From IMG/VR virus record IMGVR_UViG_3300028805_002025, positions 1 through 64,000 of that record: DNA of 64,000 bases; one strand, given 5' to 3'. The stretch comes from a virus. Taxonomy: Duplodnaviria; Caudoviricetes. Positions 12,406 through 27,719 of this stretch are shown piece after piece. Both the position numbers and the translations under genes were made by a program. Numbering within the stretch: the stretch's first letter is position 1; every line of letters starts with the position of its first letter. Under the pieces are notes generated by a model. The model ran no database searches. It was not told where the DNA came from and saw nothing but the letters and a program-made list of their open reading frames with translations.

Positions 12406-12518
12406 TCAATAATAATTTATAAATTAGATACTTTACATTCCACCATCCCGTACAACTGTAATGCTTCGCCTTGATTGAATGATACTACGCATTCGTTGCC
12501 GACGGTTACTTCTCCAGG

Positions 12519-12800: not shown

Positions 12801-12832
12801 CCTGTGATATTGTCGCCCCCAACAGGGAAGGG

Positions 12833-13237
12833 CTATCTTGCCTTTCTGACCATCGTCCTCTGTAGTTCTCCAGTCCTCACAAATCCGAATTTGCTATAGA
12901 ACTCTTGAAGCTGGTCTCCACTCATTGCCATATGTGCGCATGGGCATACCAGCAATACAAAGTTGTAGTCCTTATGTATTTCCAGAGCTTTCTGGATTAG
13001 GGCTGTTGCAATTCCATTGCCTGCATACTTCTCGTGTACCAGTACCAATTTCATTACCATCAACTTACCATTTCCGTTGCAGTACTCTGCAAATCGGTTG
13101 TAGTACTTAGAAGACCCATCTTGGATTACCAAAGACCCAAGACTATGACCGTCTTCTTTCCTCTTCGGAACAATACATTTTTGACTAAACCGTTCGTCAT
13201 TAACTACTACGATGTCGTAATCTATCATTATTCTCAA
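12833..13237 (-). CDS. GNAT acetyltransferase
   Basis: VHEKYAGNGIATALI and FYSKFGF motifs. Confidence 0.8.
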   Translation of the reverse strand: MRIMIDYDIVVVNDERFSQKCIVPKRKEDGHSLGSLVIQDGSSKYYNRFAEYCNGNGKLMVMKLVLVHEKYAGNGIATALIQKALEIHKDYNFVLLVCPCAHMAMSGDQLQEFYSKFGFVRTGELQRTMVRKAR

Positions 13238-13256
13238 TTATATGAGTTAAACAATG

Positions 13257-13348
13257 CGGAGGTGGAGGGATTCGAACCCCCACGCCAGCTCATCACCGAC
13301 CTACTTGTTTTCAAGACAAGCCTCTTCAGCCATTTTGAGTACACCTCC
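13257..13348 (-). tRNA. tRNA-Ser (TGA)
   Basis: loop CTTGAAA, long variable arm. Confidence 0.9.
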
Positions 13349-13502
13349 AATTTAGTGATTAAATGACTCGCTTCTCTGGCGCATATCATTCTGCAACTTT
13401 TTTACTTATCAAGCCCCAGCCATAGGCAGCGATACCTTTACTCCTCACAGTATTCATGACTACATATGATTCTTCAAGGGTTGCATTATTAATCACTTTT
13501 TG

Positions 13503-13575
13503 TGGAGAAGGAGGGACTCGAACCCTCTAATATAGCTTGCAAAGCTATCAGTTTAGCCAGTTAGCCTACAACCCC
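13503..13575 (-). tRNA. tRNA-Ala (TGC)
   Basis: loop TTTGCAA. Confidence 0.85.
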
Positions 13576-13636
13576 ATTATGGTGCAAAGATATATAAAAT
13601 ATCTGAGAAATCCAAATTTTCAAAGAACTTTTTTCG

Positions 13637-13709
13637 CTGGGGAGGTGGGGTTCGAACCCACGACCAATAGATTAACAGTCTACTGCGCTAACCACTGCGC
13701 TACTCCCCA
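13637..13709 (-). tRNA. tRNA-Asn (GTT)
   Basis: loop CTGTTAA. Confidence 0.9.
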
Positions 13710-13831
13710 GAATTACAAGTAAGTCTTAGTCGTGATAAAGGGCAATTTCATCCCTAACGCTGCTCTTAAGCCTTGCACTTCCATTTGATTGGAAGCATGT
13801 CTGTCTTCCATCATACCACTCTTACTTGTTG

Positions 13832-13907
13832 CGGGCACAGAAGGATTCGAACCTCCAACCCTCGGCTTAACAGGCCGTCGCTCTAACCATTAAAAAGCTA
13901 TGCGCCC
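13832..13907 (-). tRNA. tRNA-Asn (GTT)
   Basis: loop CTGTTAA. Confidence 0.9.
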
Positions 13908-13919
13908 ATATATTAACTT

Positions 13920-13997
13920 TGGCGGTGCATACGGGACTCGAACCCGTGAATCTCCTCCGTGACAGGGAGGCATCCTAACCTACTGAACGAATGCACC
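13920..13997 (-). tRNA. tRNA-Asp (GTC)
   Basis: loop CTGTCAC, encoded CCA. Confidence 0.92.
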
Positions 13998-14005
13998 AAA
14001 TTCTG

Positions 14006-14082
14006 TGGGGCGGGGCAGAATCGAACTGCCGCTAACGACCTGGATTTTCAGTCCAGCGCTCTACCTACTGAGCTACCGCCCC
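14006..14082 (-). tRNA. tRNA-Phe (GAA)
   Basis: loop CTGAAAA. Confidence 0.92.
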
Positions 14083-14087
14083 CTATG

Positions 14088-14420
14088 TCATACGAAAATG
14101 TAATCCATTAGCTTATCCCACCATGTTTCATCTTCGCCATTCTCTTCATAACCATCAAGCCATCCTGGTGTTATGTCTGGCTCTGGATAACTTACCAACC
14201 TATGTGTAAGTTCATTCACTCCTCTCTCTGCCTCCTCCTGGGTAAGAACCTCCTGGATGTCCTCCTCTATCACCTCGAAGTGAAGCAAGAAGTCCTCTGT
14301 CTCAACCCCTATCGAGTCTACTACGTACCAGTGTTCGTTTATCTCGTTGGCTGTGTATTCCTCACCAGTCCTAAACGTTGACCTGTTGGTCTGCAACTGC
14401 TCTGTACATATCACCTTCAT
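14088..14420 (-). CDS. acidic hypothetical protein
   Basis: 110-aa ORF after a host-type promoter. Confidence 0.65.
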   Translation of the reverse strand: MKVICTEQLQTNRSTFRTGEEYTANEINEHWYVVDSIGVETEDFLLHFEVIEEDIQEVLTQEEAERGVNELTHRLVSYPEPDITPGWLDGYEENGEDETWWDKLMDYIFV

Positions 14421-14507
14421 ATAAACCCGATTTTGATTTTATGGTGCAAAGATATACAAAATTTTTGAGAATTCCAAATTTCTGATTATCTTTTAACACA
14501 TATTTAC

Positions 14508-14551
14508 AAAAAAAAGCTGCTGAATACTTTTTTGGAGTTCTTCAACAGCTT
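14508..14551 (-). terminator. intrinsic terminator (attenuator of tRNA array A)
   Basis: AAGCTGTTGAA/TTCAGCAGCTT 11-bp stem plus T run. Confidence 0.8.
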
Positions 14552-14594
14552 GGGAAATATATATATATAGTGAAGTAAGTGACTTTTTTACATA

Positions 14595-14726
14595 TTATAT
14601 CTCAGTATAACCATACAGCTGTTGTCCTCCCCCTGCATCAAAATTAGACGCAACAGAATCACTCCATTTACTTGATGTAGCAAATGTAGCATTGGTCTTG
14701 ACAATATTATTAACTGTTGTAATCAT
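14595..14726 (-). CDS. leader peptide A (43 aa)
   Basis: MITTVNNIVKTNATFATSSKWSDSVASNFDAGGGQQLYGYTEI*; contains CAACAGCT, complementary to the terminator 5' arm. Confidence 0.7.
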   Translation of the reverse strand: MITTVNNIVKTNATFATSSKWSDSVASNFDAGGGQQLYGYTEI

Positions 14727-14854
14727 AATTTAAATGAGTTTAATTTTTCTATAATTATATACTAATTTTCAAAAAGTACCTATTGTACCAAAATTTTTTT
14801 TACTTTTTTCTATTTCTAGTGCAAAGATATATATTTTTTTCGACAATTCCAAAT

Positions 14855-15280
14855 TTATAGCAGATTATTTCCGCATTTTTTGCAATTTTCTTTCAGAGAA
14901 GCCACATAAGCCAGTGCATCAGCCTCGGTATCAAACGTCAAAACCCTACTACCATCCTTAACGTTGGTTTCAACATCCACACGTGCCTTAGTATGAAGTT
15001 CGCCATCAATGATAAGGTAATTATGACGTTTAGCATAATCGCTTATCTTGTAATAGTAGTAACCATCCCAACCAGTCTCTCTGATGATGTCTTCCTGGAC
15101 TACCTCCTTCACCTTCTTCCTAAACAAGGTGAACAAATTTCTCTTATACACCACATCACCCTTCTTACGGTACACCTTTATCCATGTAACTTTCTTGATG
15201 GGTGTGTATGTGATTCTAAGGATAGACCTGTAGAAGCCCTCACTATCCAGGGAGAACTGTTTATTAGTCTCGTAGTTCAT
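14855..15280 (-). CDS. hypothetical protein
   Basis: 141-aa ORF. Confidence 0.65.
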   Translation of the reverse strand: MNYETNKQFSLDSEGFYRSILRITYTPIKKVTWIKVYRKKGDVVYKRNLFTLFRKKVKEVVQEDIIRETGWDGYYYYKISDYAKRHNYLIIDGELHTKARVDVETNVKDGSRVLTFDTEADALAYVASLKENCKKCGNNLL

Positions 15281-15612
15281 AATGCCTCAGTTGCTGCCTG
15301 TAGTTCTTTCTGTTCAAAAGTAAGACCTTCTGGGTCTGATACTGTAGAGATATGCTCAATCTTCTTGTAGGTGATGTTATGATATTCCGAACGGTCAACA
15401 CCTCTGAAAGGTATCTTATCACCGTAGGTATAGCCATCGACATAACCACGATGCCATCTTCTGACACCATCCTTCTCAGTAATGAACTCCACGATGTCAC
15501 CATCAGCAGCCTCAAACTTCTTTGTAGTGAGGTTATAGAGTTTCTTATCCTTTACGATAATATCCTCTTCTTTGATACGGACTTCGTAGTCACCATTAAT
15601 TTTTACTACCAT
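15277..15612 (-). CDS. hypothetical protein
   Basis: 111-aa ORF coupled to the next gene by ATGA overlap. Confidence 0.65.
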   Translation of the reverse strand: MVVKINGDYEVRIKEEDIIVKDKKLYNLTTKKFEAADGDIVEFITEKDGVRRWHRGYVDGYTYGDKIPFRGVDRSEYHNITYKKIEHISTVSDPEGLTFEQKELQAATEAL

Positions 15613-15639
15613 ATTATTCTCCTTTTAACTTAAAATTTG

Positions 15640-15727
15640 TATAGGGGGTGGGATTCGAACCCACAACTACCTCTCGATAGACTGGTTTCGTAGACCAGGA
15701 CGGTCATCCATTACGTTTTACCCCTAC
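15640..15727 (-). tRNA. tRNA-Arg (ACG), long variable arm
   Basis: loop CTACGAA. Confidence 0.8.
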
Positions 15728-15736
15728 ATATTAAAA

Positions 15737-15877
15737 AGGGACGACCAGTTTAAAGTCCTGGCAGACTGTTAACTGATGCCTCACGCCCCTTGCGGGATTA
15801 ACGCTTCTTCAGTCCGTCTTCAGAATAATTAACAAAATGGAAATTTTACAAGAGAATTTACATTGCTGTACGTCCCT
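15737..15877 (-). ncRNA. ACAGCA-stem RNA 6, with a 3' pseudoknot
   Basis: AGGGACG-T-ACAGCAA...CTTGTAA loop...AGTC/GACT crossing CCAG/CTGG...CGTCCCT. Confidence 0.65.
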
Positions 15878-15973
15878 ATAAAGTATCCCTGCGTCGTGCT
15901 CGGAGTTTAACCTTGCGACGGTGTACTGTGTTTTATGTTCTCCCGTTCCAAATCGATTCCAACACAGGGAATG

Positions 15974-16062
15974 TGATGGTGAAGGGATTCGAACCCCCAA
16001 CTGTCTCTCGACAGAACAGTTTAGAAGACTGTGACGGTCATCCAGTTACGTTTTACACCACC
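15974..16062 (-). tRNA. tRNA-Arg (TCT), long variable arm
   Basis: loop CTTCTAA, variable arm CTGTCGAGAGACAG. Confidence 0.8.
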
Positions 16063-16063
16063 A

Positions 16064-16324
16064 TTATTCAAATATAACGTTGTTAGTCCACTCTCTGAAC
16101 AATAGGTATTGACCATGTGGCTTACCTAGTCTTGAGACGTGTACAATAGCCCTTTCCTCTTTACCAAAAGTTTCAAATTCTACCTTATCTACCTTATCAC
16201 CTGCTTTGGTATCAAGTAGTTGCAGAACCTTATACTCGAACTTCTGGTTGTCCCAGGTCTTGTAGACTATCTGCTTAACCTCACGGAGTGATTTCTGCCA
16301 CTCTCTCCAACGCTTCTTTATCAT
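16064..16324 (-). CDS. hypothetical protein
   Basis: likely start MIKKRW. Confidence 0.55.
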   Translation of the reverse strand: MIKKRWREWQKSLREVKQIVYKTWDNQKFEYKVLQLLDTKAGDKVDKVEFETFGKEERAIVHVSRLGKPHGQYLLFREWTNNVIFE

Positions 16325-16339
16325 ACTCTTATTAAGTGA

Positions 16340-16845
16340 TACACCCAGCAGGATTCGAACCTGCGACCTACTTGCTTTACCATATTGAAATTCTTGCAAG
16401 TAATACTCAAATAGACTCTCTCCACTGTGACATTTTGAAAGAATTACTGAATTAACGTCAATTGCAGCACGACTTCCCACGAATAACAAGACCACTGTTG
16501 ACTTGTCTAATTAATTCTCTACTATCTTTGTATAATTTCAACTTAGGCATTCTTATCCGATACATCGGAATAGAATGTGAGGGTATTCAATGTATTTCCC
16601 TCATATCTCCTATATATTTTCTACACATTTATGATACTTTTAATGTTGGCATCACAGAGGCAAACTTAATGCTTGTGAAGTTTCCTCGGACATTAATTTC
16701 TCAACTTAGTACGGTATTATCCTCTAGTGTTATTGTTTAACTAATCACACGCGGTTGTGATTCTGTGGACTAAAAAGTCTCTGCGAGAGGATTTCCACCG
16801 TTTTAGGGAGATTCTACATAGGGATTTTTCGCCTATGCATCCAAG
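16340..16845 (-). pseudogene. orphan tRNA 3' half with a decayed group I intron-like segment
   Basis: T arm and acceptor 3' strand only at ~16340-16375; upstream GTAGAATCTCCCTAAAACGGTGGAAATCC and GCAGAGACT resemble group I core pieces. Confidence 0.4.
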
Positions 16846-16889
16846 CACAATCACAGGTAATCTTACGAATAATCGTACATTTTACTTTG

Positions 16890-16963
16890 TACACCCGCTG
16901 GGACTCGAACCCAGGACCCACGGCTTAGAAGGCCGTTGCTCTAATCCACTGAGCTACGGGTGC
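16890..16963 (-). tRNA. tRNA-Arg (TCT)
   Basis: canonical. Confidence 0.92.
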
Positions 16964-16969
16964 ATCATC

Positions 16970-17248
16970 TTATTTAGGTACAAACATACTTGTTGCCTTA
17001 CAATGTGCTACCCTAGCATCTGTAACCTCAGACATTGGCTCTGCTAAACAAATGTTAATCCCATCGAAGAACTGACAATTATTGCAGAATACCTTCTGAT
17101 GTTTCAGTGTTGGGTCCTTCCTGTAGTCGTAGTCATCATGTAGGAATGGCTTATTCTGGTCAACCGTAATTGAATGTAAAGCCTCATACTTGAATAGAAC
17201 TGCTGTTATCAACAGGAGACTAACCAATATGATACAGACTATCCACAT
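16970..17248 (-). CDS. membrane-anchored Cys-rich protein
   Basis: N-terminal TM segment, CNNC. Confidence 0.55.
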   Translation of the reverse strand: MWIVCIILVSLLLITAVLFKYEALHSITVDQNKPFLHDDYDYRKDPTLKHQKVFCNNCQFFDGINICLAEPMSEVTDARVAHCKATSMFVPK

Positions 17249-17497
17249 AGTTTCTTATTTTAAGTCCTTAACTCGTTTAGACACCTCCTCGATTTCATCC
17301 AGGAAGTCCTTCTTATTCCTTTCCTCGCCTTTTGCTATGTTTTTAGCAGCTACTATAATCACTGCAAGCAGCACAAGGCACGTAACCAATATAGCTATTA
17401 AACGTACTAACATTTCATTATCATTTTAGTTTTACCCTGCAAAGATATACAAAATCTAATTAATAACCAAATTTTTTAAATCTTTTTAAGGAAAAAG

Positions 17498-17575
17498 TGC
17501 GCCTGGTGAGACTCGAACTCACAGAATAACCTACATCCTAAGTGTAGTGACTTTACCAGATTTGCCCACAGGCGC
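17498..17575 (-). tRNA. tRNA-Leu (TAG), short variable arm
   Basis: CTACA CTTAGGA TGTAG arm. Confidence 0.85.
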
Positions 17576-17586
17576 AAAAAAAAAAC

Positions 17587-17722
17587 AGGAAACAATGTTT
17601 GTCTAAAGCCGTGTTTACCACTTTCACCAATGAATCGCTTTATTAGAGCGACCCATGAGGGAGTCGAACCCCCATACCGTTTAGGTAGCATTATTTTAGC
17701 CCAATACTGCTGTTTGTTTCCT
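17587..17722 (-). ncRNA. ACAGCA-stem RNA 7, YrlA-type permuted tRNA mimic
   Basis: order: T arm, closed acceptor ATGGGTCGCT/AGCGATTCAT, D arm. Confidence 0.8.
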
Positions 17723-17807
17723 TGGAGTACTGAGGGTGGGACTCGAACCCACATACACCAATTACGTGGTTAATGTCAGTGTATAAGACTGCGACGATAC
17801 CTCAGTA
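17723..17807 (-). tRNA. D-armless tRNA with TAT anticodon (Ile-AUA-like)
   Basis: CAGT CTTATAC ACTG arm, T arm, extended acceptor, CCA; D arm replaced by ~8 nt. Confidence 0.6.
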
Positions 17808-18020
17808 TTAAACCTCAATGGAATCATCATTCCAGTATGGATAGTTAGACTTCTCTGACTCTGGTGTATCTGTGACTTCATAAAAAGCGCCACAGAAGGG
17901 ACATGTCATATTTGTTACCATTGCATCATCCTCATCACAATCAGCGACTCCTATGTCACTAAGCATAACATTTCCTCCTATTATGAGGTCATGACCACAA
18001 CGCATACATTTTAATTCCAT
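17808..18020 (-). CDS. small zinc-ribbon protein
   Basis: CMRC...CPFC; likely start MELKC. Confidence 0.65.
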   Translation of the reverse strand: MELKCMRCGHDLIIGGNVMLSDIGVADCDEDDAMVTNMTCPFCGAFYEVTDTPESEKSNYPYWNDDSIEV

Positions 18021-18057
18021 AATGATAATATTAAAAGTCGTATTTTTCAACTAAAAA

Positions 18058-18327
18058 ACTGAGTGTGCTGTTACGCCAAAGGAGTCCCGTGTGTCCTACC
18101 GAAACCTAGGTTCATAACCCCGCCATACTGCCAGTACCTACTCTCTAAGGGTGGACTTTTACCCAAATGTAGGCAGCAGGCCATTGAGTTTACAATGTCA
18201 TGTTGTTGATTACCCCTCACAGTCAATATCTCCCAGGCTACTTTCTAACTCCTGGTTGCTTAAGGCTCACAGGGAACTTTATGCCCACTCCTTAGAAGAT
18301 TGCTGCTCTCAAGCCAACTTCCTCAGT
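18058..18327 (-). ncRNA. 23S rRNA-mimic RNA (GTPase centre with a PTC-like insert)
   Basis: GAGGAAGTTGGCTTGAGAGCAGCAATCTTCTAAGGAG...GCGTAACAGCACACTCAG matches 23S H43/H44. Confidence 0.7.
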
Positions 18328-18338
18328 GTGTCTACTTG

Positions 18339-18412
18339 AGCGATTGCTGGGAATTGAACCCAGTACCCCTCGTCTGGACGACGAATGCTCTCCCGAATGA
18401 GCTACTAACCGC
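18339..18412 (-). tRNA. tRNA-Gly (TCC), atypical anticodon loop
   Basis: TCGT CGTCCAG ACGA arm. Confidence 0.7.
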
Positions 18413-18422
18413 AAAAAAAAAA

Positions 18423-18568
18423 GGAAACGGTTGTTGTTTATTTTTAGTGCTCTAAACCAGCTGAGCTACCGCCACATGTAGTTTGAAAAAGTGTGGCGGG
18501 CAGGATTCGAACCTACGACCCCTAGCTTGGATTGCTTTTCTAAACGATAACACTTGCTGTACGTTTCC
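18423..18568 (-). ncRNA. ACAGCA-stem RNA 8, YrlA-type permuted tRNA mimic
   Basis: order: T arm, CCGCCACA/TGTGGCGG closed acceptor, D arm. Confidence 0.8.
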
Positions 18569-18574
18569 ACATTG

Positions 18575-18646
18575 AGCGGGTAATGGGAATCGAACCCACA
18601 TCAGAAGATTGGAAATCTCCTACACTAACCGTTGTGCTATACCCGC
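18575..18646 (-). tRNA. tRNA-Gly (TCC)
   Basis: loop TTTCCAA. Confidence 0.88.
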
Positions 18647-18652
18647 ATGGTG

Positions 18653-18733
18653 AGCGAATGAAGGGAGTCGAACCCTCGTCCCCTGCTTGGAAGGCAGGTA
18701 TAATACGCTGACGCACCGTTATACGACACTCGC
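18653..18733 (-). tRNA. tRNA-Gly (TCC), enlarged D loop
   Basis: loop CTTCCAA. Confidence 0.82.
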
Positions 18734-18920
18734 ATGAAGTGGGTTGTAACCGTTACCACTATACCTACACATACGTTTAGGCAGCTAGTTTGGAAGGGCG
18801 TGGCTTCCAGGGACTACCGACGTTACGTTGAGCCTCAAATCTCTTTTGATGTCACTGGTGACGGATTCGAACCGCCACGCTAAGCCTAGGACATAGCACC
18901 AATCCAGTGAAGTGTTTTTG

Positions 18921-19001
18921 AGTGAATGAAGGGAGTCGAACCCTCGTCTCCTGCATGGCAAGCAGGTATAATGCGCAAATGCTCCGTTATACGACACTCG
19001 C
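18921..19001 (-). tRNA. tRNA-Gly (GCC), enlarged D loop
   Basis: loop TTGCCAT; near-duplicate of the 18653 gene. Confidence 0.82.
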
Positions 19002-19090
19002 AAATATGAGGGTTTCTATCAACCCTCTAAGTCATCCGTGAACTATTATTTCCCCTAGTTACAGTCGCATTCACGGTTACTCGACTCGTG

Positions 19091-19162
19091 AGCGGGTAAA
19101 GGGATTCGAACCCTCGACCTTCTGCATGGCAAGCAGACGCACTACCCCTGTGCTATACCCGC
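19091..19162 (-). tRNA. tRNA-Gly (GCC)
   Basis: canonical. Confidence 0.9.
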
Positions 19163-19375
19163 AAGAATGAACTAGCTTTATGACAGTTACTCCAGGACTG
19201 GAGGATGTGCTGTCTGGTTTGGTACTAGTTCTGAGCTGTTTACCTTTTGCAGCAACCGTTTATCTAATCATCTGGTTAAAAGGAGAATGTAGACAGATTT
19301 GATGACTGATAAACCTGCGGTTTTTTTTGCGTGTACCGCCAAAGCATAGACTAAATTCTCCTAATGTTACACTCT

Positions 19376-20401
19376 TTACTGGAGCGTCTTAACAATTGCA
19401 GCGCGACCAGTAACTGGATTTACGCCCTGTCCTTCCCAACTGTTAACCTTAACGCCACGATTTGTGAGGTAATCAGCAACGACTGCTGCTCTCTTCTCGG
19501 ACAACTGCTTGTTAAAATCATCTGTGCCCTCTGGTGAAGCTGTTCCAATCACGTCAACGATGGCATCATTGCCAATCTGATTGAGGATGTTCTTAGCCTC
19601 TAGTGAGAGTTCAGCCTTGCCCTGCTCAAACTGGACAATCCAAGCACTGTTGTCAATTACAGTGACTGTGTTGTCAACAATCTTTACCACAGTTGGTTTA
19701 CCGTCAATACAGGTCTTAAGGTCTTTCTCCAACTGAGCGTTCTCGCTGTTGAGACGGTCAATCTCACTAATCATTGCCCCAACATCCCAAGTCTTGAAAC
19801 TGTGAGTTCCATTGGAGTTCTTGAAGTGATAGATATAACTACCCATCAAGGCAATCAGCGCGTTGTTGTGGTTGAACTGAATGTGACCATTGTTTCTAAG
19901 ACCCCAGTACACTGCTGGACTGAATACCAATGAATGTGCTCTCTTCTTACCAATATTGAATGTGAAATCAATACCAGTCTTTGCGACTACATCATTGCCA
20001 CCGTTGTTAAGGACGTGCTTTAGACCCAAACCTACGATTGCAGATGTCTCGAACACACGAGGCTTTCCGTTGTAGCCAAGGAACATGTTCTGGATGTTCA
20101 AACTACCATTCAAACCAAGGTTGATAGCCTTGAACGCTGTCTTAGCATCAGCGAAATGATTGTCAGCAAGGCTTGTGGTTGCCTCGAACTGTAAGCCAAG
20201 AACTGGAGTGATACCCTTTGTAGCAACAAGACCCAAGGTCGTGTTAACAGGGAATGCTGAGTTAAGGTCAAGTGGTGTGGTTACACCAGCCGTTGCTCCC
20301 AATCCAATGTTGTCAAGAGCGTTACTGTTCTCAGTCGCAATCTGTGCTTGCGCACATACTACAGCACTAAAGAGTGCCAACATTAAAATTACTTTCTTCA
20401 T
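19376..20401 (-). CDS. OmpA-family outer membrane protein
   Basis: signal peptide, beta-barrel region, coiled coil, OmpA_C motif GTASPEG..FNKQLSEKRA..V..YL. Confidence 0.9.
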   Translation of the reverse strand: MKKVILMLALFSAVVCAQAQIATENSNALDNIGLGATAGVTTPLDLNSAFPVNTTLGLVATKGITPVLGLQFEATTSLADNHFADAKTAFKAINLGLNGSLNIQNMFLGYNGKPRVFETSAIVGLGLKHVLNNGGNDVVAKTGIDFTFNIGKKRAHSLVFSPAVYWGLRNNGHIQFNHNNALIALMGSYIYHFKNSNGTHSFKTWDVGAMISEIDRLNSENAQLEKDLKTCIDGKPTVVKIVDNTVTVIDNSAWIVQFEQGKAELSLEAKNILNQIGNDAIVDVIGTASPEGTDDFNKQLSEKRAAVVADYLTNRGVKVNSWEGQGVNPVTGRAAIVKTLQ

Positions 20402-20498
20402 TTTTTTCTGTTTAAAACTTTTATTAAAAAATTATTACTTCAAGGTATAACTAGTGCAAAGATATAAAAATTTTTTCAAAAAACCAAATTTTTTCCAA

Positions 20499-20813
20499 TT
20501 AAAATGGCAAATCATCCAACTTTTTAGCTTTCTTAATCGTCCATTTATATTGAAATACGTCTGGTTTCCCGACAACCTTTTCTCTCTTGAAACCAGGTAT
20601 CCTCGTTGTATAACCTTTCCTCTCAAGCGTTCTCACTACTAGTTCAAACGCATCGTAACAATATGGGTGCTCTGAAGTATCAATACGTAACGTCAGAGTT
20701 GTGTCCTCATCCAACCCAGCCTCCTCTATGTTAACAAGCAACCTCTTGATGAAGAAGAAGCAATATGCTGGGAAGTTGACATCATCCTTTGTTATCTTCT
20801 TATACTCTCCCAT
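20499..20813 (-). CDS. hypothetical protein
   Basis: 104 aa, ends in DDLPF (SSB-like tail). Confidence 0.65.
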   Translation of the reverse strand: MGEYKKITKDDVNFPAYCFFFIKRLLVNIEEAGLDEDTTLTLRIDTSEHPYCYDAFELVVRTLERKGYTTRIPGFKREKVVGKPDVFQYKWTIKKAKKLDDLPF

Positions 20814-20833
20814 TAGTTTAATTTTAAATGTCG

Positions 20834-20906
20834 TCGGGGCGACACGGCTCGAACGTGCGACCTCAGCATCCCAAATGCCGTGCTCTACCTACTGAGCTAC
20901 ACCCCG
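20834..20906 (-). tRNA. tRNA-Pro (TGG)
   Basis: loop TTTGGGA. Confidence 0.9.
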
Positions 20907-20938
20907 ATTTGCCCATTTAAGGTATGGGCTACCATAAC

Positions 20939-21082
20939 AGGAAACCTTTGTTGTTTACTAAAAGCTCTACCAACTAAGCTACCCCGCCATTTTCTGTGTG
21001 CCTAGTGGCGGGGGTGGGACTCGAACCCACGACCTCTCGCTTATGATGCAAAATGAAACTAAATCATTGCTGCAAGTTTCCT
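20939..21082 (-). ncRNA. ACAGCA-stem RNA 9, permuted tRNA mimic with a CAT loop
   Basis: GCAGCAA variant; TTTGC ATCATAA GCGAG arm, T arm, CCCCGCCA/TGGCGGGG, D arm. Confidence 0.8.
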
Positions 21083-21084
21083 TG

Positions 21085-21157
21085 TCGGGAAAACTGGACT
21101 CGAACCAGCGACCACAGCATCCCAAATGCCGCATTCTACCTACTGAACTACTCCCCG
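21085..21157 (-). tRNA. tRNA-Pro (TGG)
   Basis: loop TTTGGGA. Confidence 0.9.
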
Positions 21158-21330
21158 ATTAATTACTGTGCAAAGATATATATTTTTTTTCACAATTCCA
21201 AATTTTTCGTAACTTTTTTAAGCATTATTCAGCATGCCACCGACACTGCATTATCATTAGGGCACGGTGAAATATGCCGATTGCTCCTATACTACGCCCT
21301 TTAGCCATCATATAGTCCTCTTAAACGCTT

Positions 21331-21411
21331 TGGGTGTTTGACAGGATTCGAACCTGCGGTGATAAACATGTGCCACAAACATGCGCCTTCAGCCACTCGG
21401 CCACAAACACC
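21331..21411 (-). tRNA. tRNA-His (GTG)
   Basis: loop TTGTGGC. Confidence 0.85.
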
Positions 21412-21419
21412 ATATTCTT

Positions 21420-21497
21420 TGGGTGAAAGGTGGGGACTCGAACCCACAGCCTCCTGGTTCACAGCCAGGCACTCTAACCAACTGAGCTACAATCACC
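21420..21497 (-). tRNA. tRNA-His (GTG)
   Basis: loop CTGTGAA. Confidence 0.9.
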
Positions 21498-21505
21498 ATG
21501 TAAAC

Positions 21506-21621
21506 AGGAATCGTTTCAACTAAGATGAGGCAGGATTCGAACCTACGTCTCCTGGTAAAATCCAGGGCTTTAGTCCACTAAGCTACTCGCCTGGAGTCTC
21601 TTAATCTGCTGTTAGATTCCT
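21506..21621 (-). ncRNA. ACAGCA-stem RNA 10, with a nested non-permuted tRNA-like body
   Basis: D arm, CCTGG ATTTTA CCAGG arm and T arm inside the AGGAATC/GATTCCT stem. Confidence 0.75.
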
Positions 21622-21623
21622 TG

Positions 21624-21704
21624 TCTGGAGGGTTGGATTCAAACCAACGAACTCTGCTATCTCATCACGGCTACTTTGCAGAACTATGTTGCCGTTTCCT
21701 CCAG
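21624..21704 (-). ncRNA. D-armless tRNA-like RNA
   Basis: CTGGAGG/CCTCCAG acceptor, T arm, no canonical anticodon loop. Confidence 0.55.
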
Positions 21705-21710
21705 GATTTG

Positions 21711-21784
21711 TCTAGGTAGAGGGACTCGAACCCCCACTTCCTACGCTCCAAACGTAGAGGCTTAACCAATTAGCTGACACCTAG
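21711..21784 (-). tRNA. tRNA-Pro (TGG)
   Basis: loop TTTGGAG. Confidence 0.85.
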
Positions 21785-21793
21785 ATATTTTTG

Positions 21794-21887
21794 TCGGAGG
21801 GGAGGGATTCGAACCCCCCTACTGCAAGACCAGTACGACAATTTGTTAAAGCAGGGCAGATTTACAGTCTGCTGCCGTTACCCTCCG
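21794..21887 (-). tRNA. D-armless tRNA with Tyr (GTA) anticodon and C1:G72
   Basis: GCAGA CTGTAAA TCTGC arm; D arm replaced by TAACGGCA; ~36-nt variable region. Confidence 0.65.
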
Positions 21888-21893
21888 ATTGAC

Positions 21894-21958
21894 GGGAACT
21901 CTTTTTAAACGGATTTTGAAGTTGCAGTTCAATGTTTAAACACTTGCTGTTAGTTCCC
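21894..21958 (-). ncRNA. ACAGCA-stem RNA 11, displaying a Cys (GCA) anticodon stem-loop
   Basis: TTGAA CTGCAAC TTCAA inside GGGAACT/AGTTCCC. Confidence 0.75.
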
Positions 21959-22094
21959 TTATTTTTTCGTTTAATTCTTCTATCTCTGATTCGACATATC
22001 CAAGATTCCTACTGAACCATTCTTTTCTACCATTGAGGTAATCTATTCTCTCCTTAAGCAATTTAATGCTACTTTCAACACTCATCATATTATA

Positions 22095-22535
22095 TTATTT
22101 AAATTTCCCAAGCCGTATTGCATCAACCAGATATGTGTACACTCCGTACCAATCGGTCTCAGCATCGAATCCAAACTTATCGTCTATACCGACATTAAAG
22201 TAAGTCTTCTCGTCAAAGCATGACAGGTCATTGTTCTTGGTCTCTGGATTAATGTTGATGTAGTCGAACTTGATATGGTTCTCCTCGAACACCTTACCAT
22301 ACACCTCCTCAATTGTCTCCCTGTAGGATGAAGACCATAGTATGAGGCTGATGTTACTGGCGTAACTCATGAGTTCCAATGCTTCCTTCGCAAAGGGATA
22401 CCACTTGTGTTCCTCCTTGTTATGGTAACAAGCCTTGAAGATTGTATCATGGATGTCAACCAGTACATATATCTTCTCCCAATTGCGTTGGCGCATTCTC
22501 TCAAATGCCCTATCGAAACTTTTTCTTATATCCAT
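22095..22535 (-). CDS. HAD-superfamily hydrolase-like protein
   Basis: VLVDIHDTI, LWSS, IDDK motifs; start MDIRKS. Confidence 0.65.
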   Translation of the reverse strand: MDIRKSFDRAFERMRQRNWEKIYVLVDIHDTIFKACYHNKEEHKWYPFAKEALELMSYASNISLILWSSSYRETIEEVYGKVFEENHIKFDYININPETKNNDLSCFDEKTYFNVGIDDKFGFDAETDWYGVYTYLVDAIRLGKFK

Positions 22536-22538
22536 AGC

Positions 22539-22609
22539 CACACTAAGATGGACTCGAACCACCTACCACAGAACGCTGGTTCTGCATGCTACCGTTACAC
22601 CACAGGTGA
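22539..22609 (-). pseudogene. degenerate tRNA
   Basis: D and T arms present; 6-nt anticodon loop; poor acceptor stem. Confidence 0.5.
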
Positions 22610-22615
22610 AATATC

Positions 22616-22703
22616 GTTGGGTGAGCAGGATTCGAACCTGCGGTGGATGTAACACCACAATAGCTTCAGAGACTACCGCCTTAAACCACTCGGCCATCGC
22701 CCA
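22616..22703 (-). tRNA. tRNA-Gln (CTG), long variable arm
   Basis: loop CTCTGAA, U1:A72. Confidence 0.8.
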
Positions 22704-22815
22704 ATAAAAATTTTAACCTCAACTTACCCTCTACCTAAGAATAGGAAGGGGATTCGAACCCCTTTGTTGCATTTACCACAATCTCGGTCAGCGAGGTGGA
22801 GTCGAACCACCATTC

Positions 22816-22887
22816 GTTGGGGTACTCGGATTCGAACCAAGAATGACAGGACCAGAATCTGTAGTGTTACCATTACACCATACCCCA
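22816..22887 (-). tRNA. tRNA-Gln (CTG)
   Basis: loop TTCTGGT. Confidence 0.9.
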
Positions 22888-22987
22888 AAGTAAATAGAGA
22901 CGTGCGCAATGTAGACATGGATTCATCCTTTCGGCAATCCCTAGTACGGCAATTATCCGTAAATCCACCGTCTCTACTTATAATAAA

Positions 22988-23051
22988 GGGAACATTTTTT
23001 TTGTTTTCCTAAATACACATTCTAGTAACTTAATACTTGCTGTATGTTCCC
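22988..23051 (-). ncRNA. ACAGCA-stem RNA 12
   Basis: GGGAACA-T-ACAGCAA...TGTTCCC. Confidence 0.65.
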
Positions 23052-23057
23052 ACTCTG

Positions 23058-23128
23058 TAGCCCAGCTAGGAATCGAACCTAGTTTCTCTGTGTGAAAGGC
23101 AGTGCTCCTACCAATAGAGGACAGGGCC
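23058..23128 (-). tRNA. tRNA-Glu (TTC)
   Basis: loop CTTTCAC. Confidence 0.8.
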
Positions 23129-23226
23129 AAGTTTGTCCACTACGAACTACGAGAGCGTGTCTCATGGACTATGACGGTCAACCGAAGTCTTATTAAGTAT
23201 CACGTGCTACACCGTCAAGACTTTTG

Positions 23227-23299
23227 TAGTCCCAGGGGGACTCGAACCCCCATTATCTGCGTGAGAGGCAGGCCTCCTAACCTGTTAGAGGATGGGACC
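23227..23299 (-). tRNA. tRNA-Glu (CTC)
   Basis: loop CTCTCAC. Confidence 0.88.
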
Positions 23300-23446
23300 A
23301 AATAAAGATGCTGTGTTGGAGGCGTGAATCTCTCGCCCACTTTAGCCCAAACGAGGCGTGGAAAACACGACTGCTTGGAAGGGTACGACTTTCCACATTT
23401 AATCTACTTCAGTGCATTTCGAACTACACCTTTTCGAACATCTTTG

Positions 23447-23517
23447 TAGCGCATAGGGGAATCGAACCCCTGTTCTCACATCGAAAGTGTGGTGTCCTAC
23501 CACTAGACGAATGCGCC
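23447..23517 (-). tRNA. tRNA-Glu (TTC)
   Basis: loop CTTTCGA. Confidence 0.9.
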
Positions 23518-23736
23518 ATCCTTTTAAAGTTTCACAGTGCAAAGATATACAAATTTTTTAAAATCCCATTTCTTCTTTGGTGGGTTCTTCTAAACCACCT
23601 CTTCTAATACCTTCTGCTAGAATTTTCAAAATTTTCCTATCTTTTTCTTTTGGGAATCTTTTCTCAGCAATTCTATAACATTTTCTTTTTTTCATATTGA
23701 ATACTCTAGAATTCTTGCATTATTACCTCTATAGTC

Positions 23737-24045
23737 TTATTTCTCCTTCTTATCGAAGCCATCCAGAATCTCTTGAGCCAGACTTATCATTTCATCCAAT
23801 GACTTATGAAGCTCAGTAGGTTCATAGCAACGAGGCTCTACATAATCCTCGTCTGTACTGCACTTGTGGCTGTTATCCTTCCACCACTTCTTAAAGTAGC
23901 GTGGGTGAACATCACAGTGGTGAGGAATCTCCTTGTACACTGGAACTGAAAGCATTCCACCACACTCCAGCTTTCTTCCGACTACCTTGGTCTCCTTCCG
24001 TCTGTAGTTCTTACAGTCTAAACAACTATTCTTGCACATAAACAA
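23737..24045 (-). CDS. Cys-rich hypothetical protein
   Basis: 102-aa ORF. Confidence 0.6.
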   Translation of the reverse strand: MFMCKNSCLDCKNYRRKETKVVGRKLECGGMLSVPVYKEIPHHCDVHPRYFKKWWKDNSHKCSTDEDYVEPRCYEPTELHKSLDEMISLAQEILDGFDKKEK

Positions 24046-24128
24046 GTCATTTTAAAGTTTCACGGTGCAAAGATATAGAAAATTTTCGAGAATTCCAAAT
24101 TTTGAACCAATTTTTTTCATTTTTTAAC

Positions 24129-24162
24129 AAAAAAGGCAGATAATCATAGTAGATTACCTGCC
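24129..24162 (-). terminator. intrinsic terminator (attenuator of tRNA array B)
   Basis: GGCAGGTAATC/GATTATCTGCC stem plus T6. Confidence 0.85.
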
Positions 24163-24221
24163 CAAAAATAAAAGCCTATGTTTAACTAAAATCCTTTTCA
24201 CTGGAATTTCCAACTAATCTA

Positions 24222-24320
24222 CTACACAAAAATACACGCACGACGGCCTTCGCCTGGATACTGCTCATACCCATGCTGTCTAGGCTCTTCTATTCCGTGT
24301 AGTATAATTGATAAGTTCAT
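24222..24320 (-). CDS. leader peptide B (32 aa)
   Basis: MNLSIILHGIEEPRQHGYEQYPGEGRRACIFV* followed by a second TAG; TAGTAGATTA is complementary to the terminator's TAATCTACTA. Confidence 0.7.
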   Translation of the reverse strand: MNLSIILHGIEEPRQHGYEQYPGEGRRACIFV

Positions 24321-24339
24321 AATTGAAATATTCGTTTAT

Positions 24340-24347
24340 TATAAATA
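24340..24347 (-). promoter_or_regulatory. putative phage-specific promoter motif TATTTAT(A), representative copy
   Basis: on the coding strand upstream of genes on both strands: ~4689, 33906, 56281, 57211, 58914 (-); ~28497, 36373, 39317, 52545 (+). Confidence 0.55.
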
Positions 24348-24389
24348 TAATGATATTCTTAAAAAAAACAAGTCTTTTCCGTAATTTTT

Positions 24390-24836
24390 TTATTCTGCTG
24401 GATGACGTGCTTCCCACTCGGCTTGCCAAGTAGCCTCAATCTCTGGAGTAACCTCCTGGTAGATGTCAGTACCGTAGGCTTTACCAAGAATCTCGCAAGA
24501 CCAACCGAATACGGTAGTACCTGTGCTTCCAATCTTGTACCATGTCCTTCCATCATGTCCACAGTTTGCAATCTCCCATACCTGGTGTACCATATAGTAA
24601 TCACCCTGCTCACTGGTCATCTTGCAGAATACTGCATCACCCCTTGAAGGAGGAGTATCAGCCCGTCTTAATGGTACAATCTTGCAATACTCCATGTGGT
24701 TGATAAGTGGTCTCATGGAATCTCCAGCCTCCCAGTGGTAGACTGTCTCACCATGTCTAAGTGCCTCAGCGATTTCCTCGCTGTCCTGGACTACCCTTAT
24801 TCCATCGATAGTCTCTGGTTCATTTACTATTCTCAT
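24390..24836 (-). CDS. S24/S26 peptidase-like protein
   Basis: GDSMRP...RGDAVFCK...H; related to the 1376-1702 ORF. Confidence 0.55.
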   Translation of the reverse strand: MRIVNEPETIDGIRVVQDSEEIAEALRHGETVYHWEAGDSMRPLINHMEYCKIVPLRRADTPPSRGDAVFCKMTSEQGDYYMVHQVWEIANCGHDGRTWYKIGSTGTTVFGWSCEILGKAYGTDIYQEVTPEIEATWQAEWEARHPAE

Positions 24837-24839
24837 GTT

Positions 24840-26246
24840 TTATCTTTCGTCTAAAAAATCTACTAAACTACCCCTTCTGTATGGGTTTATATTAGCAACT
24901 CTAAGAAGTGCTTCGTCAATGGTAATCAACTGAGCATCAACAGCCTTGAAATAGTTATCAAGGTCATCGATATACTTCTCAATACCAACGATTGGTTCGA
25001 GTTCCATATTGAAACGAGGTATCTTAACATCCGATGGCTGGTTGATTTTGAATTTCTTCATCCTCTCGATAGCCAACTCTTCGAGTCTCCTCTTCTCAGC
25101 CTCTGCCTTTTCAGCCTCTTCAATTTGACGCTTTCTAGCCTCCTCTTCCTGTCTGATTCTCTCAGCCTCTGCCTCAGCTTTCTTGCGCTTAATCTCCTCG
25201 TATTCCTCTACGGTTAAACCACCAAGCTCATCCCATGTGATAGTGAAGAACTCGTTAGGGTTAACGCCATCAAGGTACTTAGGGTCAACACCATAGCAAT
25301 TATCAAAAGAGCCATAGTCTACATCATGCTTTTTCAACTGAATGTAGATGAATACCTCGTCCTCAGAAGAAATGAAGTTACCATGAGTAAACAGCTTGGT
25401 CGATGGATGAACTATGCAGGCATCCAGAGGCTTGTGGTCTGGCACAACGACACCGTTACCGTATACGATAGGTTCGTTGCTCTCAACCATGATAGACCTC
25501 TCAAACTGCTCTTCCTTAATCAGCTTACCGCTAGGAGACAGTACGTAACCGTCTGAGTAGTCACTGAATCCTTCTAGCTTAAGAACTATATGCCTTATGG
25601 TGTTGTCTACATCACTTCTAGGTGTGGTAGCAAGGTTGTGTTCGTCAAAGTCGATTACATCCTTTACATGCACCCAGGACATCGTTTTTGGGAAGAGCTG
25701 TAGACCAGCCTCATACTCAATACCGATGTGCTCACAGTCATTCTTAGACAGGGTGTAGATATTACCGACCTCTCCAGAAATCTGCTTCACAATCAATGAG
25801 TCAACCTTTACACCACCGTATTCGTCATGGATACCGATAAGCTTATATATCTTCTCAGAACCAGCGAAACCATCACATCCAGGAGTAGTAAGGGCATACT
25901 TCTCACCAACGATGAACCTAGGCATTGAGTCATAATTATCCTCAGCCTCTACAATTCCCATTTCGGTGAAATCGATAGCCTTGAAGAGGTTATTAGGCAT
26001 AGTGAATCTCTTCTCTACCTTTTTCTCCTCTCTCTTAGGATACCCGTATCTTATTTGTGGTACAATAAACTGTGTTGACTTACTTCTATAGTTCATATCT
26101 TCTGTGTAAACCAGTTGACTAACTGGGATTTTGATTTGACAATCTCTCGAAAACTGTAAAACTACGTTACCCTCGGAGTCAGTGACTGCTGAGTGGAGTA
26201 TGGTCTCCTTGGGCAACGTGAAGTTCATATTTTTTATCTTAGCCAT
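24840..26246 (-). CDS. hypothetical protein with a C-terminal coiled coil
   Basis: 468 aa, coupled to the telA-like gene. Confidence 0.8.
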   Translation of the reverse strand: MAKIKNMNFTLPKETILHSAVTDSEGNVVLQFSRDCQIKIPVSQLVYTEDMNYRSKSTQFIVPQIRYGYPKREEKKVEKRFTMPNNLFKAIDFTEMGIVEAEDNYDSMPRFIVGEKYALTTPGCDGFAGSEKIYKLIGIHDEYGGVKVDSLIVKQISGEVGNIYTLSKNDCEHIGIEYEAGLQLFPKTMSWVHVKDVIDFDEHNLATTPRSDVDNTIRHIVLKLEGFSDYSDGYVLSPSGKLIKEEQFERSIMVESNEPIVYGNGVVVPDHKPLDACIVHPSTKLFTHGNFISSEDEVFIYIQLKKHDVDYGSFDNCYGVDPKYLDGVNPNEFFTITWDELGGLTVEEYEEIKRKKAEAEAERIRQEEEARKRQIEEAEKAEAEKRRLEELAIERMKKFKINQPSDVKIPRFNMELEPIVGIEKYIDDLDNYFKAVDAQLITIDEALLRVANINPYRRGSLVDFLDER

Positions 26247-27588
26247 TATCTAACGAGAGCAAGTTTTGACCACGCTTGCCCTGGAGTTCTCTGGCTACAA
26301 TCTTCTGGGTTGAATCGGCAATGCCAATAGCCTTCATTGACATTTCCTTCTCCAACTTGACAAGCTCTGCCTCGGCAGCAGCACGTTTCTGAGCACCCTC
26401 CTGCTGAGCCTTCTGAACGCCCTCTACTGTAGCAAGCAGCTCCTGTGTGGTCTTACGAAGGGTCTCAATGTCAAGCACTGAACGCTGAGCCTGCTTAGCG
26501 ACCTCAATAGCTTGGGTCTTCATCATTTCAGCATTCTTCTTGAACATTTCATTGGTAGCCTCAGTCACCTTGTTACTAATCTCGATACTCTGCTTCTGGT
26601 TGTACAGAGCCACAGCAAGTGACATCTGGTTCTTCCACAGAGGGATAGTCATGGTAATCTGCTGCTCGGTGTTCTGAGCGTCCATCTGGTTGGTACGCTG
26701 GATAATACGAATCTGAGTCAGCGACTGCTTGAATGCGTAGCGCAACATAATAAGGTCTGTGATACGCTTGTCGAGAGCATTCTTATACTCCTCGATGTCG
26801 CTAATCTGATAGTCCTCGAACTCGGCTGCATTAGCCTTCATGTTCTCCAGAACCTGCTCCAGCTCCTGTGACTTCATCTTACCAGCGATGATAAGGTCTT
26901 CCAACTGGTCTACGTAGTCACAGTTATTCTGGAACTGCTTCTCCAAGTTGTTATTGTCACGGATAGCAATCTGACGAGTTGCCTCCAGCTTCTTCACGAT
27001 ACCGTCGATATTCTTCTGAATGGTGTTGTACTTAGCCTTCACCTGCTCAACGGAAATAACAAGTCTCTTGAGACCAGGAATTTTGCGGAGGAATTTCTTG
27101 ACAGCACCAGGTGCTTCAAGGTCATCGATATCAACCTCATGAAGCTCACCAAGCAGGTTAGCAATAAGGTCAGCCGACTCCAGGCTGTTCTCACGACTGA
27201 ATGACTGTGTGAGGAAGTCGCTGGAATAGGTATCCATTGCATGCTGCAAGTCAGAACCATAGGTAGAGATACTGGTCAAATCCTTCTCATTGAGGGATGA
27301 TGCAATATCCTTGTAGTACGCAAGGCTCTGAGGAGAGAGGTTCGCAATATTCACCTCACCGTTCTCATTGATGCGCTTCTGAGGGACGGATGGAGTGCCA
27401 CCCTTCAACTCAGCCTCAGCCTCTGCTGCAATCTCATCAGCAGCCTTTCTGGTTCTTTCAACCTTTGGTTTTGGGGCTGGTGTGGTAGTTCTCCTAGCTC
27501 TTCTTGTTCTTGTGGTTGTTGTGGTGGTTGCACCCTCCACTACCTCAGCATCAACAACTGTGGTTTGCTTTTTACTTCTTGTTGCCAT
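26239..27588 (-). CDS. telA: toxic anion/tellurite resistance protein TelA
   Basis: helical protein with QIRIIQ..N...IPLWKNQ motif. Confidence 0.85.
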   Translation of the reverse strand: MATRSKKQTTVVDAEVVEGATTTTTTRTRRARRTTTPAPKPKVERTRKAADEIAAEAEAELKGGTPSVPQKRINENGEVNIANLSPQSLAYYKDIASSLNEKDLTSISTYGSDLQHAMDTYSSDFLTQSFSRENSLESADLIANLLGELHEVDIDDLEAPGAVKKFLRKIPGLKRLVISVEQVKAKYNTIQKNIDGIVKKLEATRQIAIRDNNNLEKQFQNNCDYVDQLEDLIIAGKMKSQELEQVLENMKANAAEFEDYQISDIEEYKNALDKRITDLIMLRYAFKQSLTQIRIIQRTNQMDAQNTEQQITMTIPLWKNQMSLAVALYNQKQSIEISNKVTEATNEMFKKNAEMMKTQAIEVAKQAQRSVLDIETLRKTTQELLATVEGVQKAQQEGAQKRAAAEAELVKLEKEMSMKAIGIADSTQKIVARELQGKRGQNLLSLDNG

Positions 27589-27719
27589 TATTCTATTAAT
27601 TTAAAGTTATAATACTCAATTTGGTGCAAAGATATATTTTTTTTATGTGAATTCAAAATTTCCCGTGTTAAAAAAAGTAAATCAACAAAAAACTACCCAT
27701 GCTGTGGGTAGTTAATTGT

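Follow-up and report, generated by a model that had tools for sequence, protein, structure and literature searches.

Leader-peptide attenuation is a textbook mechanism in the control of amino-acid biosynthesis and of a few synthetase operons. Some enterobacterial attenuators are multivalent: the ilvGMEDA leader responds to Ile, Leu and Val, and the thr leader to Thr and Ile. The pheM leader of pheST is the attenuator of an aminoacyl-tRNA synthetase operon and senses Phe. Our literature search found no paper on leader-peptide attenuation of tRNA genes or of phage tRNA arrays. Here we describe a candidate of that kind, leader B, in the virus record IMGVR_UViG_3300028805_002025 (Duplodnaviria; Caudoviricetes), a single contig of 241,681 bp with 39% G+C, whose first 64 kb (64,000 nucleotides) are referred to as the window. 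Leader B lies on the minus strand of the window at the head of a block of tRNA genes, array B, and an earlier note made from the sequence alone had proposed that it is an attenuator whose codons match the tRNA set of that array. We consider it probable (roughly 0.6) that leader B is a multivalent, ribosome-mediated leader-peptide attenuator of transcription, with a late-type promoter, at the head of array B. The comparison of relatives, covariation, the in-set variation of free codons and footprint folding all supported the attenuator interpretation, and they do not prove it.

Leader B resembles the ilvGMEDA and thr leaders in having a short, apparently translated open reading frame (ORF) that is rich in the codons it would sense, and in sensing several amino acids. 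Folding predictions add a closed state comparable to the 1:2 pairing of those leaders and a region 2, at the end of the ORF, that can pair with the 5' side of an intrinsic terminator. Leader B differs from them in that it precedes tRNA genes rather than genes for biosynthetic enzymes, covers nine amino acids with about 22 sensor codons and no tandem run of a single codon, is a phage element with a late-type promoter before it and a constitutive host-type promoter after it, and has an antiterminator that spans the top of the terminator only. Classical attenuated operons also have internal promoters, so the intervening host-type promoter does not exclude leader B from the attenuator class. As with pheM, a leader peptide is proposed to control the decoding machinery, and the supply of charged tRNA would feed back on its own production; pheM is bacterial, responds to one amino acid and governs a protein product, whereas leader B is viral and precedes the tRNAs themselves. 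The proposed element is also similar to the T-box in being a cis-acting leader in which the state of tRNA would tune terminator read-through. In contrast, T-boxes are untranslated and bind uncharged tRNA directly, and leader B matched neither a T-box nor any other Rfam family; no T-box was detected at the gathering threshold in the window or at E values up to 10 in 24050-24420. We recognised no established arrest motif of the SecM, TnaC or MifM type in the peptide.

The leader ORF (24222-24320, minus strand) comprises 32 codons and a TAG stop and encodes MNLSIILHGIEEPRQHGYEQYPGEGRRACIFV. It begins with the ATG at 24320-24318 and ends at a first TAG (24224-24222) that is followed directly by a second, in-frame TAG (24221-24219). 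As the earlier note had described, the ORF lies behind a TATTTATA motif at 24347-24340. This motif is contained in TATATTTATAAT (24349-24338), which together with a TTG at 24371-24369 makes up a promoter-like region (24338-24371, minus strand) of the ATATTTATA class.

Searches with the upstream gene, which encodes a protein of 148 amino acids (aa), yielded 4, then 10 and then 56 related loci. The leader module was found in 48 distinct relatives, always 3' of the 148-aa gene and always in the order TATATTTATAAT, an ORF of 22-36 codons, a box, a spacer, a hairpin and a host-type promoter; the promoter-like region was kept in all of them. The consensus of the ORF among the relatives is MITFNLHIEQPRELGYEYPRLGGVCVG, and the clade of the window carries the form found in the window. 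The most distant relatives of the 148-aa gene (L178 and L180) had no leader and, on their short contigs, no array, and are uninformative. The relatives came from rumen-type metagenomes, and the DNA and RNA sequencing runs that contained the window stretch were sheep and cattle gut samples. Among GenBank phages there was no blastn match to 23500-27600. A scan of viral contigs with an 18-nt promoter string was also tried and was set aside as too unspecific; it returned at least 118 loci, mostly unrelated, and the peptide was found in the known relatives alone.

The leader ORF carries the signature of a coding sequence. Its frame was open in 48 of 48 sequences, and the indels inside it were all multiples of three (at least five events), apart from a single-base indel at the extreme end of the ORF that shifts the stop from TAG to TAA just 3' of the box. 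Entropy at codon positions 1, 2 and 3 was 0.62, 0.61 and 0.90, respectively, and invariant residues varied synonymously (His CAT/CAC, Gly GGG/GGA, Arg AGA/CGT). By this comparative signature the ORF is probably translated. If leader B were instead a structured non-coding RNA, such as a small RNA or an element of a 3' untranslated region, the frame and the composition would be accidents of a purine-rich fold. The predicted fold is very stable (z of -4.5), the AUG is buried in its closed form, and no Shine-Dalgarno sequence is present, although the lack of one is usual in Bacteroidota. The frame kept open in every sequence, the 3-nt indels, the freer third positions and the synonymous path between AGA and CGT all speak against a non-coding RNA, as does the lack of an Rfam family match, and we regard this explanation as very improbable.

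The linkage between leader and array is conserved. Each of the 38 loci for which about 350 nt or more of downstream sequence was available had a tRNA array that began 71-803 nt 3' of the hairpin and had Glu, Arg(tcg) or Gln as its first gene. The arrays of the relatives contained Glu, Gln, Tyr, Pro, His, Gly, an AUA decoder, Leu(tag) and Arg. The protein genes between hairpin and array vary by phage (102 aa and 45 aa in the window, an unrelated ORF of about 128 aa in L001, a 62-aa ORF in L003 and none in many others) while the array stays, and the conserved linkage is therefore that of leader to array. The comparison of homologous loci, which the earlier note had named as its own test, found the ORF, the stop box, the hairpin and the array kept in the relatives and no leader of unmatched composition before the array.

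A scan of the whole genome with ARAGORN detected 44 tRNA and transfer-messenger RNA (tmRNA) genes, all on the minus strand and all inside the window, where the tRNA genes are grouped in blocks of isoacceptors. Array B (15639-23517, minus strand), which holds the proposed regulated genes, was defined with ARAGORN, Infernal and our own loop scan. The ARAGORN calls in the array were Arg x3 (tcg, tct, acg), Glu x2, Gln(ctg) x2, Pro x3, His x2, Gly x3 and Leu(tag). Infernal and the loop scan added Tyr(GUA) at 21794-21887, which has a long variable arm, Ile(UAU) at 17728-17806, and two further Gly genes with inserts in the D-loop. Nearly all of the genes that the earlier note had listed for the array were recovered in this way; its third Glu gene was not confirmed; the candidate, at 22539-22609, resembles a tRNA gene but its anticodon loop is unusual.

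Several unusual genes were observed in or near array B. The Gly genes with inserts (GCC and UCC; 18921-19001 and about 18700-18780, both on the minus strand) carry about 12-19 additional nt in the D-loop, and ARAGORN with default settings misses or misreads both. The 'Tyr(ata)' that ARAGORN reported at 18921-19001 under relaxed settings was dropped; Infernal identified this gene as Gly(GCC) with a D-loop insert. Two tRNA-shaped genes on the minus strand, at 21522-21592 and 22539-22609, have a 6-nt anticodon loop; the first, called '???(tt)' by ARAGORN, is kept between Pro and His in the arrays of most relatives. A long-armed, tRNA-like gene at 15975-16062 (minus strand), which ARAGORN did not call, gave a tRNA-Sec-like match of 38.5 bits (gathering score 47). 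The homologous array of L159 includes a tRNA with the anticodon CTA (Pyl according to ARAGORN; amber-reading), and the ORFs of the window read well under table 11.

The composition and the codon choice of leader B match the tRNAs of its array. The sensor core, codons 6-27 (24240-24305, minus strand), consists only of I (ATA), L (CTA), H, G, E, P, R, Q and Y, and all of its codons can be decoded by tRNAs of array B. The earlier note had begun the matched core at codon 5, but this codon is ATT and is decoded by the Ile(GAU) tRNA of a second block, array A; the matched core is thus codons 6-27. When all six reading frames of the genome (241,681 bp) were scanned, the set {I,L,H,G,E,P,R,Q,Y} reached its longest run in the core of leader B (23 residues vs. 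20, 18 and 17 for the next), and the set {M,I,T,V,N,K,A,F,S,W,D} reached its longest run in leader A, which precedes array A (32 vs. 25 for the next). Both maxima fall within a few hundred bases before their own array, which by position alone would be expected about once in 500 for each. Since each leader is the genome-wide longest run of the set of its own array, the match goes beyond chance, as the earlier note had argued. That the two leaders use nearly disjoint sets of amino acids holds for the two runs but not for the tail of leader A, GGGQQLYGYTEI, which has B-type residues.

The match extended to the relatives. Their core residues belonged to the nine-residue set in 826 of 849 cases (97%), and 31 of the 41 distinct minority residues were also in the set, compared to 0.52 under a codon-neighbour null (p ~0.002, uncorrected for relatedness). 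Free columns exchanged in-set residues that are physico-chemically unlike (R/Y/I/L; L/H/R; L/E/H/Y/R/Q; G/E/R/I). Core Ile was encoded by ATA in 37 of 38 and in 8 of 8 cases among the relatives, and array B has Ile(UAU) or a CAU tRNA; Ile in the run of leader A was always ATT or ATC, and array A has Ile(GAU). Leu at column 6 was CTA in 38 of 41 cases. This is the rarest Leu codon (8% in the long ORFs of the phage), and the preference for it may derive in part from the helix at that place. The matches of ATA to Ile(UAU) and of CTA to Leu(UAG) claimed in the earlier note were borne out: both tRNAs are in array B, and the codons are kept in relatives.

These patterns bear on the possibility that leader B is an ordinary late gene for a micro-protein of 27-36 aa, with its own promoter and terminator and a functional peptide, whose likeness to the tRNA set would follow incidentally from its being polar and disordered. 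Coding selection on the ORF is clear, and the order LH-IE-QPR-GYE-YP is conserved at about the rate of the neighbouring 148-aa protein. Promoter, ORF and terminator form a complete unit, and the array has promoters of its own. However, the variable columns swap unlike residues and yet remain in the set of the array, the codon choice too follows the array (ATA vs. ATT/ATC and the rare CTA), and leader A repeats the coincidence, with both leaders being genome-wide maxima. The peptide has no family in Pfam or PHROGs; in searches of these databases neither the 32-aa peptide nor leader A had a match, nor did the proteins of 148 aa and 468 aa encoded upstream or the 102-aa protein encoded downstream.

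The 3' part of leader B contains a box that covaries with the hairpin after it. Region 2 (24212-24238, minus strand) holds the final codons of the ORF, the tandem stops and the box, whose core is TAGTAGATTA (24224-24215). It is followed by an AT-rich, poorly conserved spacer with small local hairpins (24164-24211) and by an intrinsic-terminator hairpin (24163-24134; 12 pairs, -18.3 kcal/mol) with the run TTTTTTG. This element, 24128-24163 in all, is the best terminator-like site between 14 and 30 kb. Region 3 (24147-24156), TAATCTACTA, is the upper 5' arm and loop of the terminator and, as the earlier note had pointed out, an exact 10-nt complement of the core box. A perfect inverted pair of 10 nt arose in 2.7% of shuffles of the 213-nt leader. 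The predicted duplex has -12.6 kcal/mol, the helix in the window is 10-12 bp long, and 7-12 contiguous pairs are possible in 48 of 48 relatives. In the relatives the box is GTAGA(T/C)T at or next to the stop, the spacer is AT-rich and 60-90 nt long, and the hairpin (-15.6 to -23 kcal/mol) carries A(A/G)TCTAC in its 5' arm and loop. Relative to the last nucleotide of the stop, the box lay at -3 to +8 nt in 45 of the 48 sequences and 14 nt downstream in two; the position in L141 was not usable.

Box columns 115-121 pair with hairpin columns 215-221 in about 100% of the sequences. The variable pair 120-216 was UA in 26 sequences, CG in 13, UG in 8 and another combination in one, and never C/A. 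The covariation score of the helix was 0.149 compared to 0.109 in shuffles, none of 500 shuffles reached 0.149, and the true register beat all slid registers; RNAalifold recovered the helix unprompted. The A/T-type hairpin has switched to G/C in L143 and L144, and a second hairpin type has both G/C and G/T, which indicates at least two independent compensated changes. The hairpin stems also vary among clades with compensating changes. The box pair was also considered as a pair of DNA half-sites for a protein. This was rejected: the pair can be T/G but is never C/A, which fits pairing in the RNA of the minus strand rather than a DNA site. The micro-protein explanation gives no role to a stop-codon box that covaries with the loop of a terminator.

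The ORF is itself predicted to fold. Region 1 (24296-24317; codons 2-9) is the 5' strand of a closed hairpin and pairs with 24238-24212 over 20 bp, and the ORF hairpin has -31.7 kcal/mol. In nearly all of the 48 relatives the ORF, from the AUG to just past the box, was predicted to form one closed hairpin of -26 to -41 kcal/mol (mean z of -4.5 against mononucleotide shuffles), in which the start codon and the box would be held by each other's strands. Within it, an internal hairpin (24252-24276; RNAalifold consensus, columns 63-69 with 75-81) spans the G-Y-E-(Q)-Y-P codons, which encode the part of the peptide that varies least; the additional Gln codon found in the window's clade lies in the loop of this hairpin. 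The L-H codons are in the outer helix and the G-Y and Y-P codons in the inner hairpin, and all invariant residues are thus inside predicted helices. RNA structure can therefore explain the conserved order of residues without a function for the peptide. This coincidence of invariant residues with RNA helices is a further point against a functional micro-protein, which we consider quite unlikely.

The effect of a translating ribosome was modelled by folding the transcript up to region 3 with a 27-nt ribosome footprint that could not pair. For two relatives, the predicted probability of pairing between the box and region 3 was 0.17 and 0.36 when no ribosome was placed on the RNA; a ribosome at the early codons raised it to about 0.99, and one at the last three codons or the stop reduced it to 0. 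For the window, the probability was 0.97-1.0 until codon 13, varied from 0.15 to 0.98 over codons 14-28 and was 0 from codon 29. The model thus agrees with the proposal in the earlier note that a ribosome reaching the stop would cover the antiterminator.

On the attenuator interpretation, leader B would operate as follows. The late-type, ATATTTATA-class promoter would start a short RNA, and the 32-codon ORF would be translated while the RNA is being synthesized, with codons 6-27 all read by tRNAs of the downstream array. When decoding is quick, the ribosome would arrive at the tandem stops and cover TAGTAGATTA; when there is no translation, the 5' part of the ORF would keep the box in the closed hairpin. 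With the box covered or closed, the downstream hairpin and its T-run would form and the transcript would end at about 24130. If any of the matched aminoacyl-tRNAs were scarce, the ribosome would stall within the ORF, the 5' partner would be kept away and the box would be free. Once the terminator's upper 5' arm and loop began to emerge, the free box would pair with them, nucleation of the hairpin would be hindered and RNA polymerase would continue into the array. Leader A would be the equivalent switch for array A.

Several observations weigh against this mechanism. The full transcript at equilibrium always adopted the terminator fold, and any switch must therefore be kinetic; the complete transcripts of classical attenuators likewise prefer the terminator. 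The helix between box and hairpin competes with only 4 of the 12 terminator pairs, at the top of the stem, and with the loop (3 of 11 pairs in a common relative). The helix could block nucleation of the hairpin, but it leaves free the G+C-rich base of the stem beside the T-run, which might therefore form all the same, perhaps as a pseudoknot. The core helix between region 1 and the box was paired in 80% of the relatives' alignment and showed no covariation there. A T-run follows the hairpin in about one third of the relatives (the window's clade and a few others), and the remainder have TTAAAYTGTTT. A strong host-type promoter lies 60 nt 3' of the terminator in every relative and others lie within the array, so the array does not depend on read-through. 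Two protein ORFs (102 aa and 45 aa) stand between the terminator and the first tRNA gene in the window; no further terminator-like site was predicted in this interval, and the genes are on the same strand as the leader. In nine relatives the core includes Ser, for which there is no matching tRNA, and some arrays contain tRNAs for Ser or Cys, or Ile(GAU), that have no counterpart in the leader. Finally, the relatives share ancestry and the counts are not independent events.

Some of these points would be accommodated by a translated, decoding-sensing leader with an output other than antitermination. The pseudoknot between box and loop might set RNA stability or processing, or the hairpin might insulate the upstream SSB/TelA-like operon from the array, with translation tuning the insulation. 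The pairing spares the lower stem of the terminator and sterically fits an H-type pseudoknot, most relatives lack the T-run, and transcripts from host-type promoters further upstream, at 27634 and 28472, are also predicted to enter the hairpin. Against such an output, the window and its clade have a canonical intrinsic terminator and the pairing there reaches 10-12 bp, no processing signal is known here, and the conserved linkage is to the array and not to a particular downstream gene. We consider an output of this kind unlikely and retain the attenuator interpretation.

Relatives without the T-run have a conserved, near-palindromic TTAAAYTGTTTAAAT after the hairpin and before the host-type promoter (e.g., L146, 3500-3534). 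This sequence could be a protein site or part of the upstream region of the promoter.

The promoters of the region fall into two types. The motif TATCTTTGCAC with TTTGG about 20 nt 5' of it has 24 minus-strand copies in the window, compared to 1.5 expected. TTTGG with TATCTTTGCAC is the -33/-7 promoter type of Bacteroidota, and the label host-type promoter was given because of this match. The copy downstream of leader B (24065-24103, minus strand; TTTGG, a spacer and TATATCTTTGCAC) has its TATCTTTGCAC at 24075-24065, in agreement with the earlier note, which had reported a host-type promoter 3' of the terminator. The ATATTTATA motif occurs 15-25 nt 5' of the ATG of about 40 genes genome-wide, including those for the tail sheath, a tape-measure-like protein and a minor head protein. 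Judging from these genes, ATATTTATA is likely the late or structural promoter class of this phage group; it differs from the host-type TTTG/TAnnTTTG promoters, which belong to the early and tRNA region. Within the tRNA region this class is confined to the leaders: leader B, a leader C with the same motif and leader A with a close variant. Each array has many host-type promoters and one late-type entry that is gated by a leader and hairpin. We speculate that the downstream host-type promoters give a constitutive early supply of tRNA and that the late supply is on demand.

Four rumen metatranscriptome runs cover parts of the leader region as assembled contigs of low depth. An RNA contig from a related strain crosses the hairpin (24362-23812) and demonstrates neither a single transcript nor read-through. 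In a different part of the array, 16005-17006, word depth was in the hundreds to thousands in all four runs (583 to 16,022 in the 16506-17006 bin) compared to tens or less in most bins. This stretch contains tRNA-Arg(tct) and unannotated sequence, and contig variants omit about 125-137 nt at 16396-16534. The high depth could come from a structured RNA that is abundant, or from cross-matches to sequences of other organisms.

Leader A is a 43-codon ORF (14726-14595, minus strand) behind TATAATTATA (cassette 14595-14760), and its first 31 residues form the genome's longest run of residues from the array-A set. Downstream of the ORF come an 11-bp hairpin with T8, then a host-type promoter and then array A. 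Leader A was kept in seven distinct relatives, in which the approximately 70 nt 3' of the stop, including the hairpin and loop, were almost invariant and more conserved than the neighbouring proteins. A phage-encoded tmRNA (4315-4675, minus strand; 78 bits), with the tag GEIDFSPAYAYAVAA, lies among the tRNA genes of array A. Leader C (58530-58925, minus strand) consists of TATATTTATA and a 22-codon ORF that ends in GQLRLQRLAR, and it precedes a Leu/Gln array. A host-type promoter at 58580 has a 9-bp hairpin with T8 immediately 3' of it; this hairpin would either limit the transcript to about 45 nt or serve as an additional gate in front of the array.

The leaders raise the possibility that giant phages run their tRNA genes as demand-controlled regulons, in which each block has a multivalent ORF that serves as a decoding test, a switchable terminator and a late promoter. 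We regard this generalization as about an even proposition. If it is true, the phage would replace precisely the tRNAs whose supply runs short in late infection, for example when host tRNAs are cut by defence nucleases or degraded. It would represent a new regulatory class for tRNA genes and would explain the means by which large phages set the amounts of dozens of tRNAs, the sorting of tRNA genes into amino-acid blocks and the presence of small conserved ORFs at the heads of these blocks. The 48 natural variants with their covarying positions are ready designs for compensatory mutations. The purpose of phage tRNAs, compensation for codon usage vs. replacement of tRNAs lost to host defences, would then become testable, as the leader would list the codons that the phage monitors and would give a direct read-out of the tRNAs that it needs.

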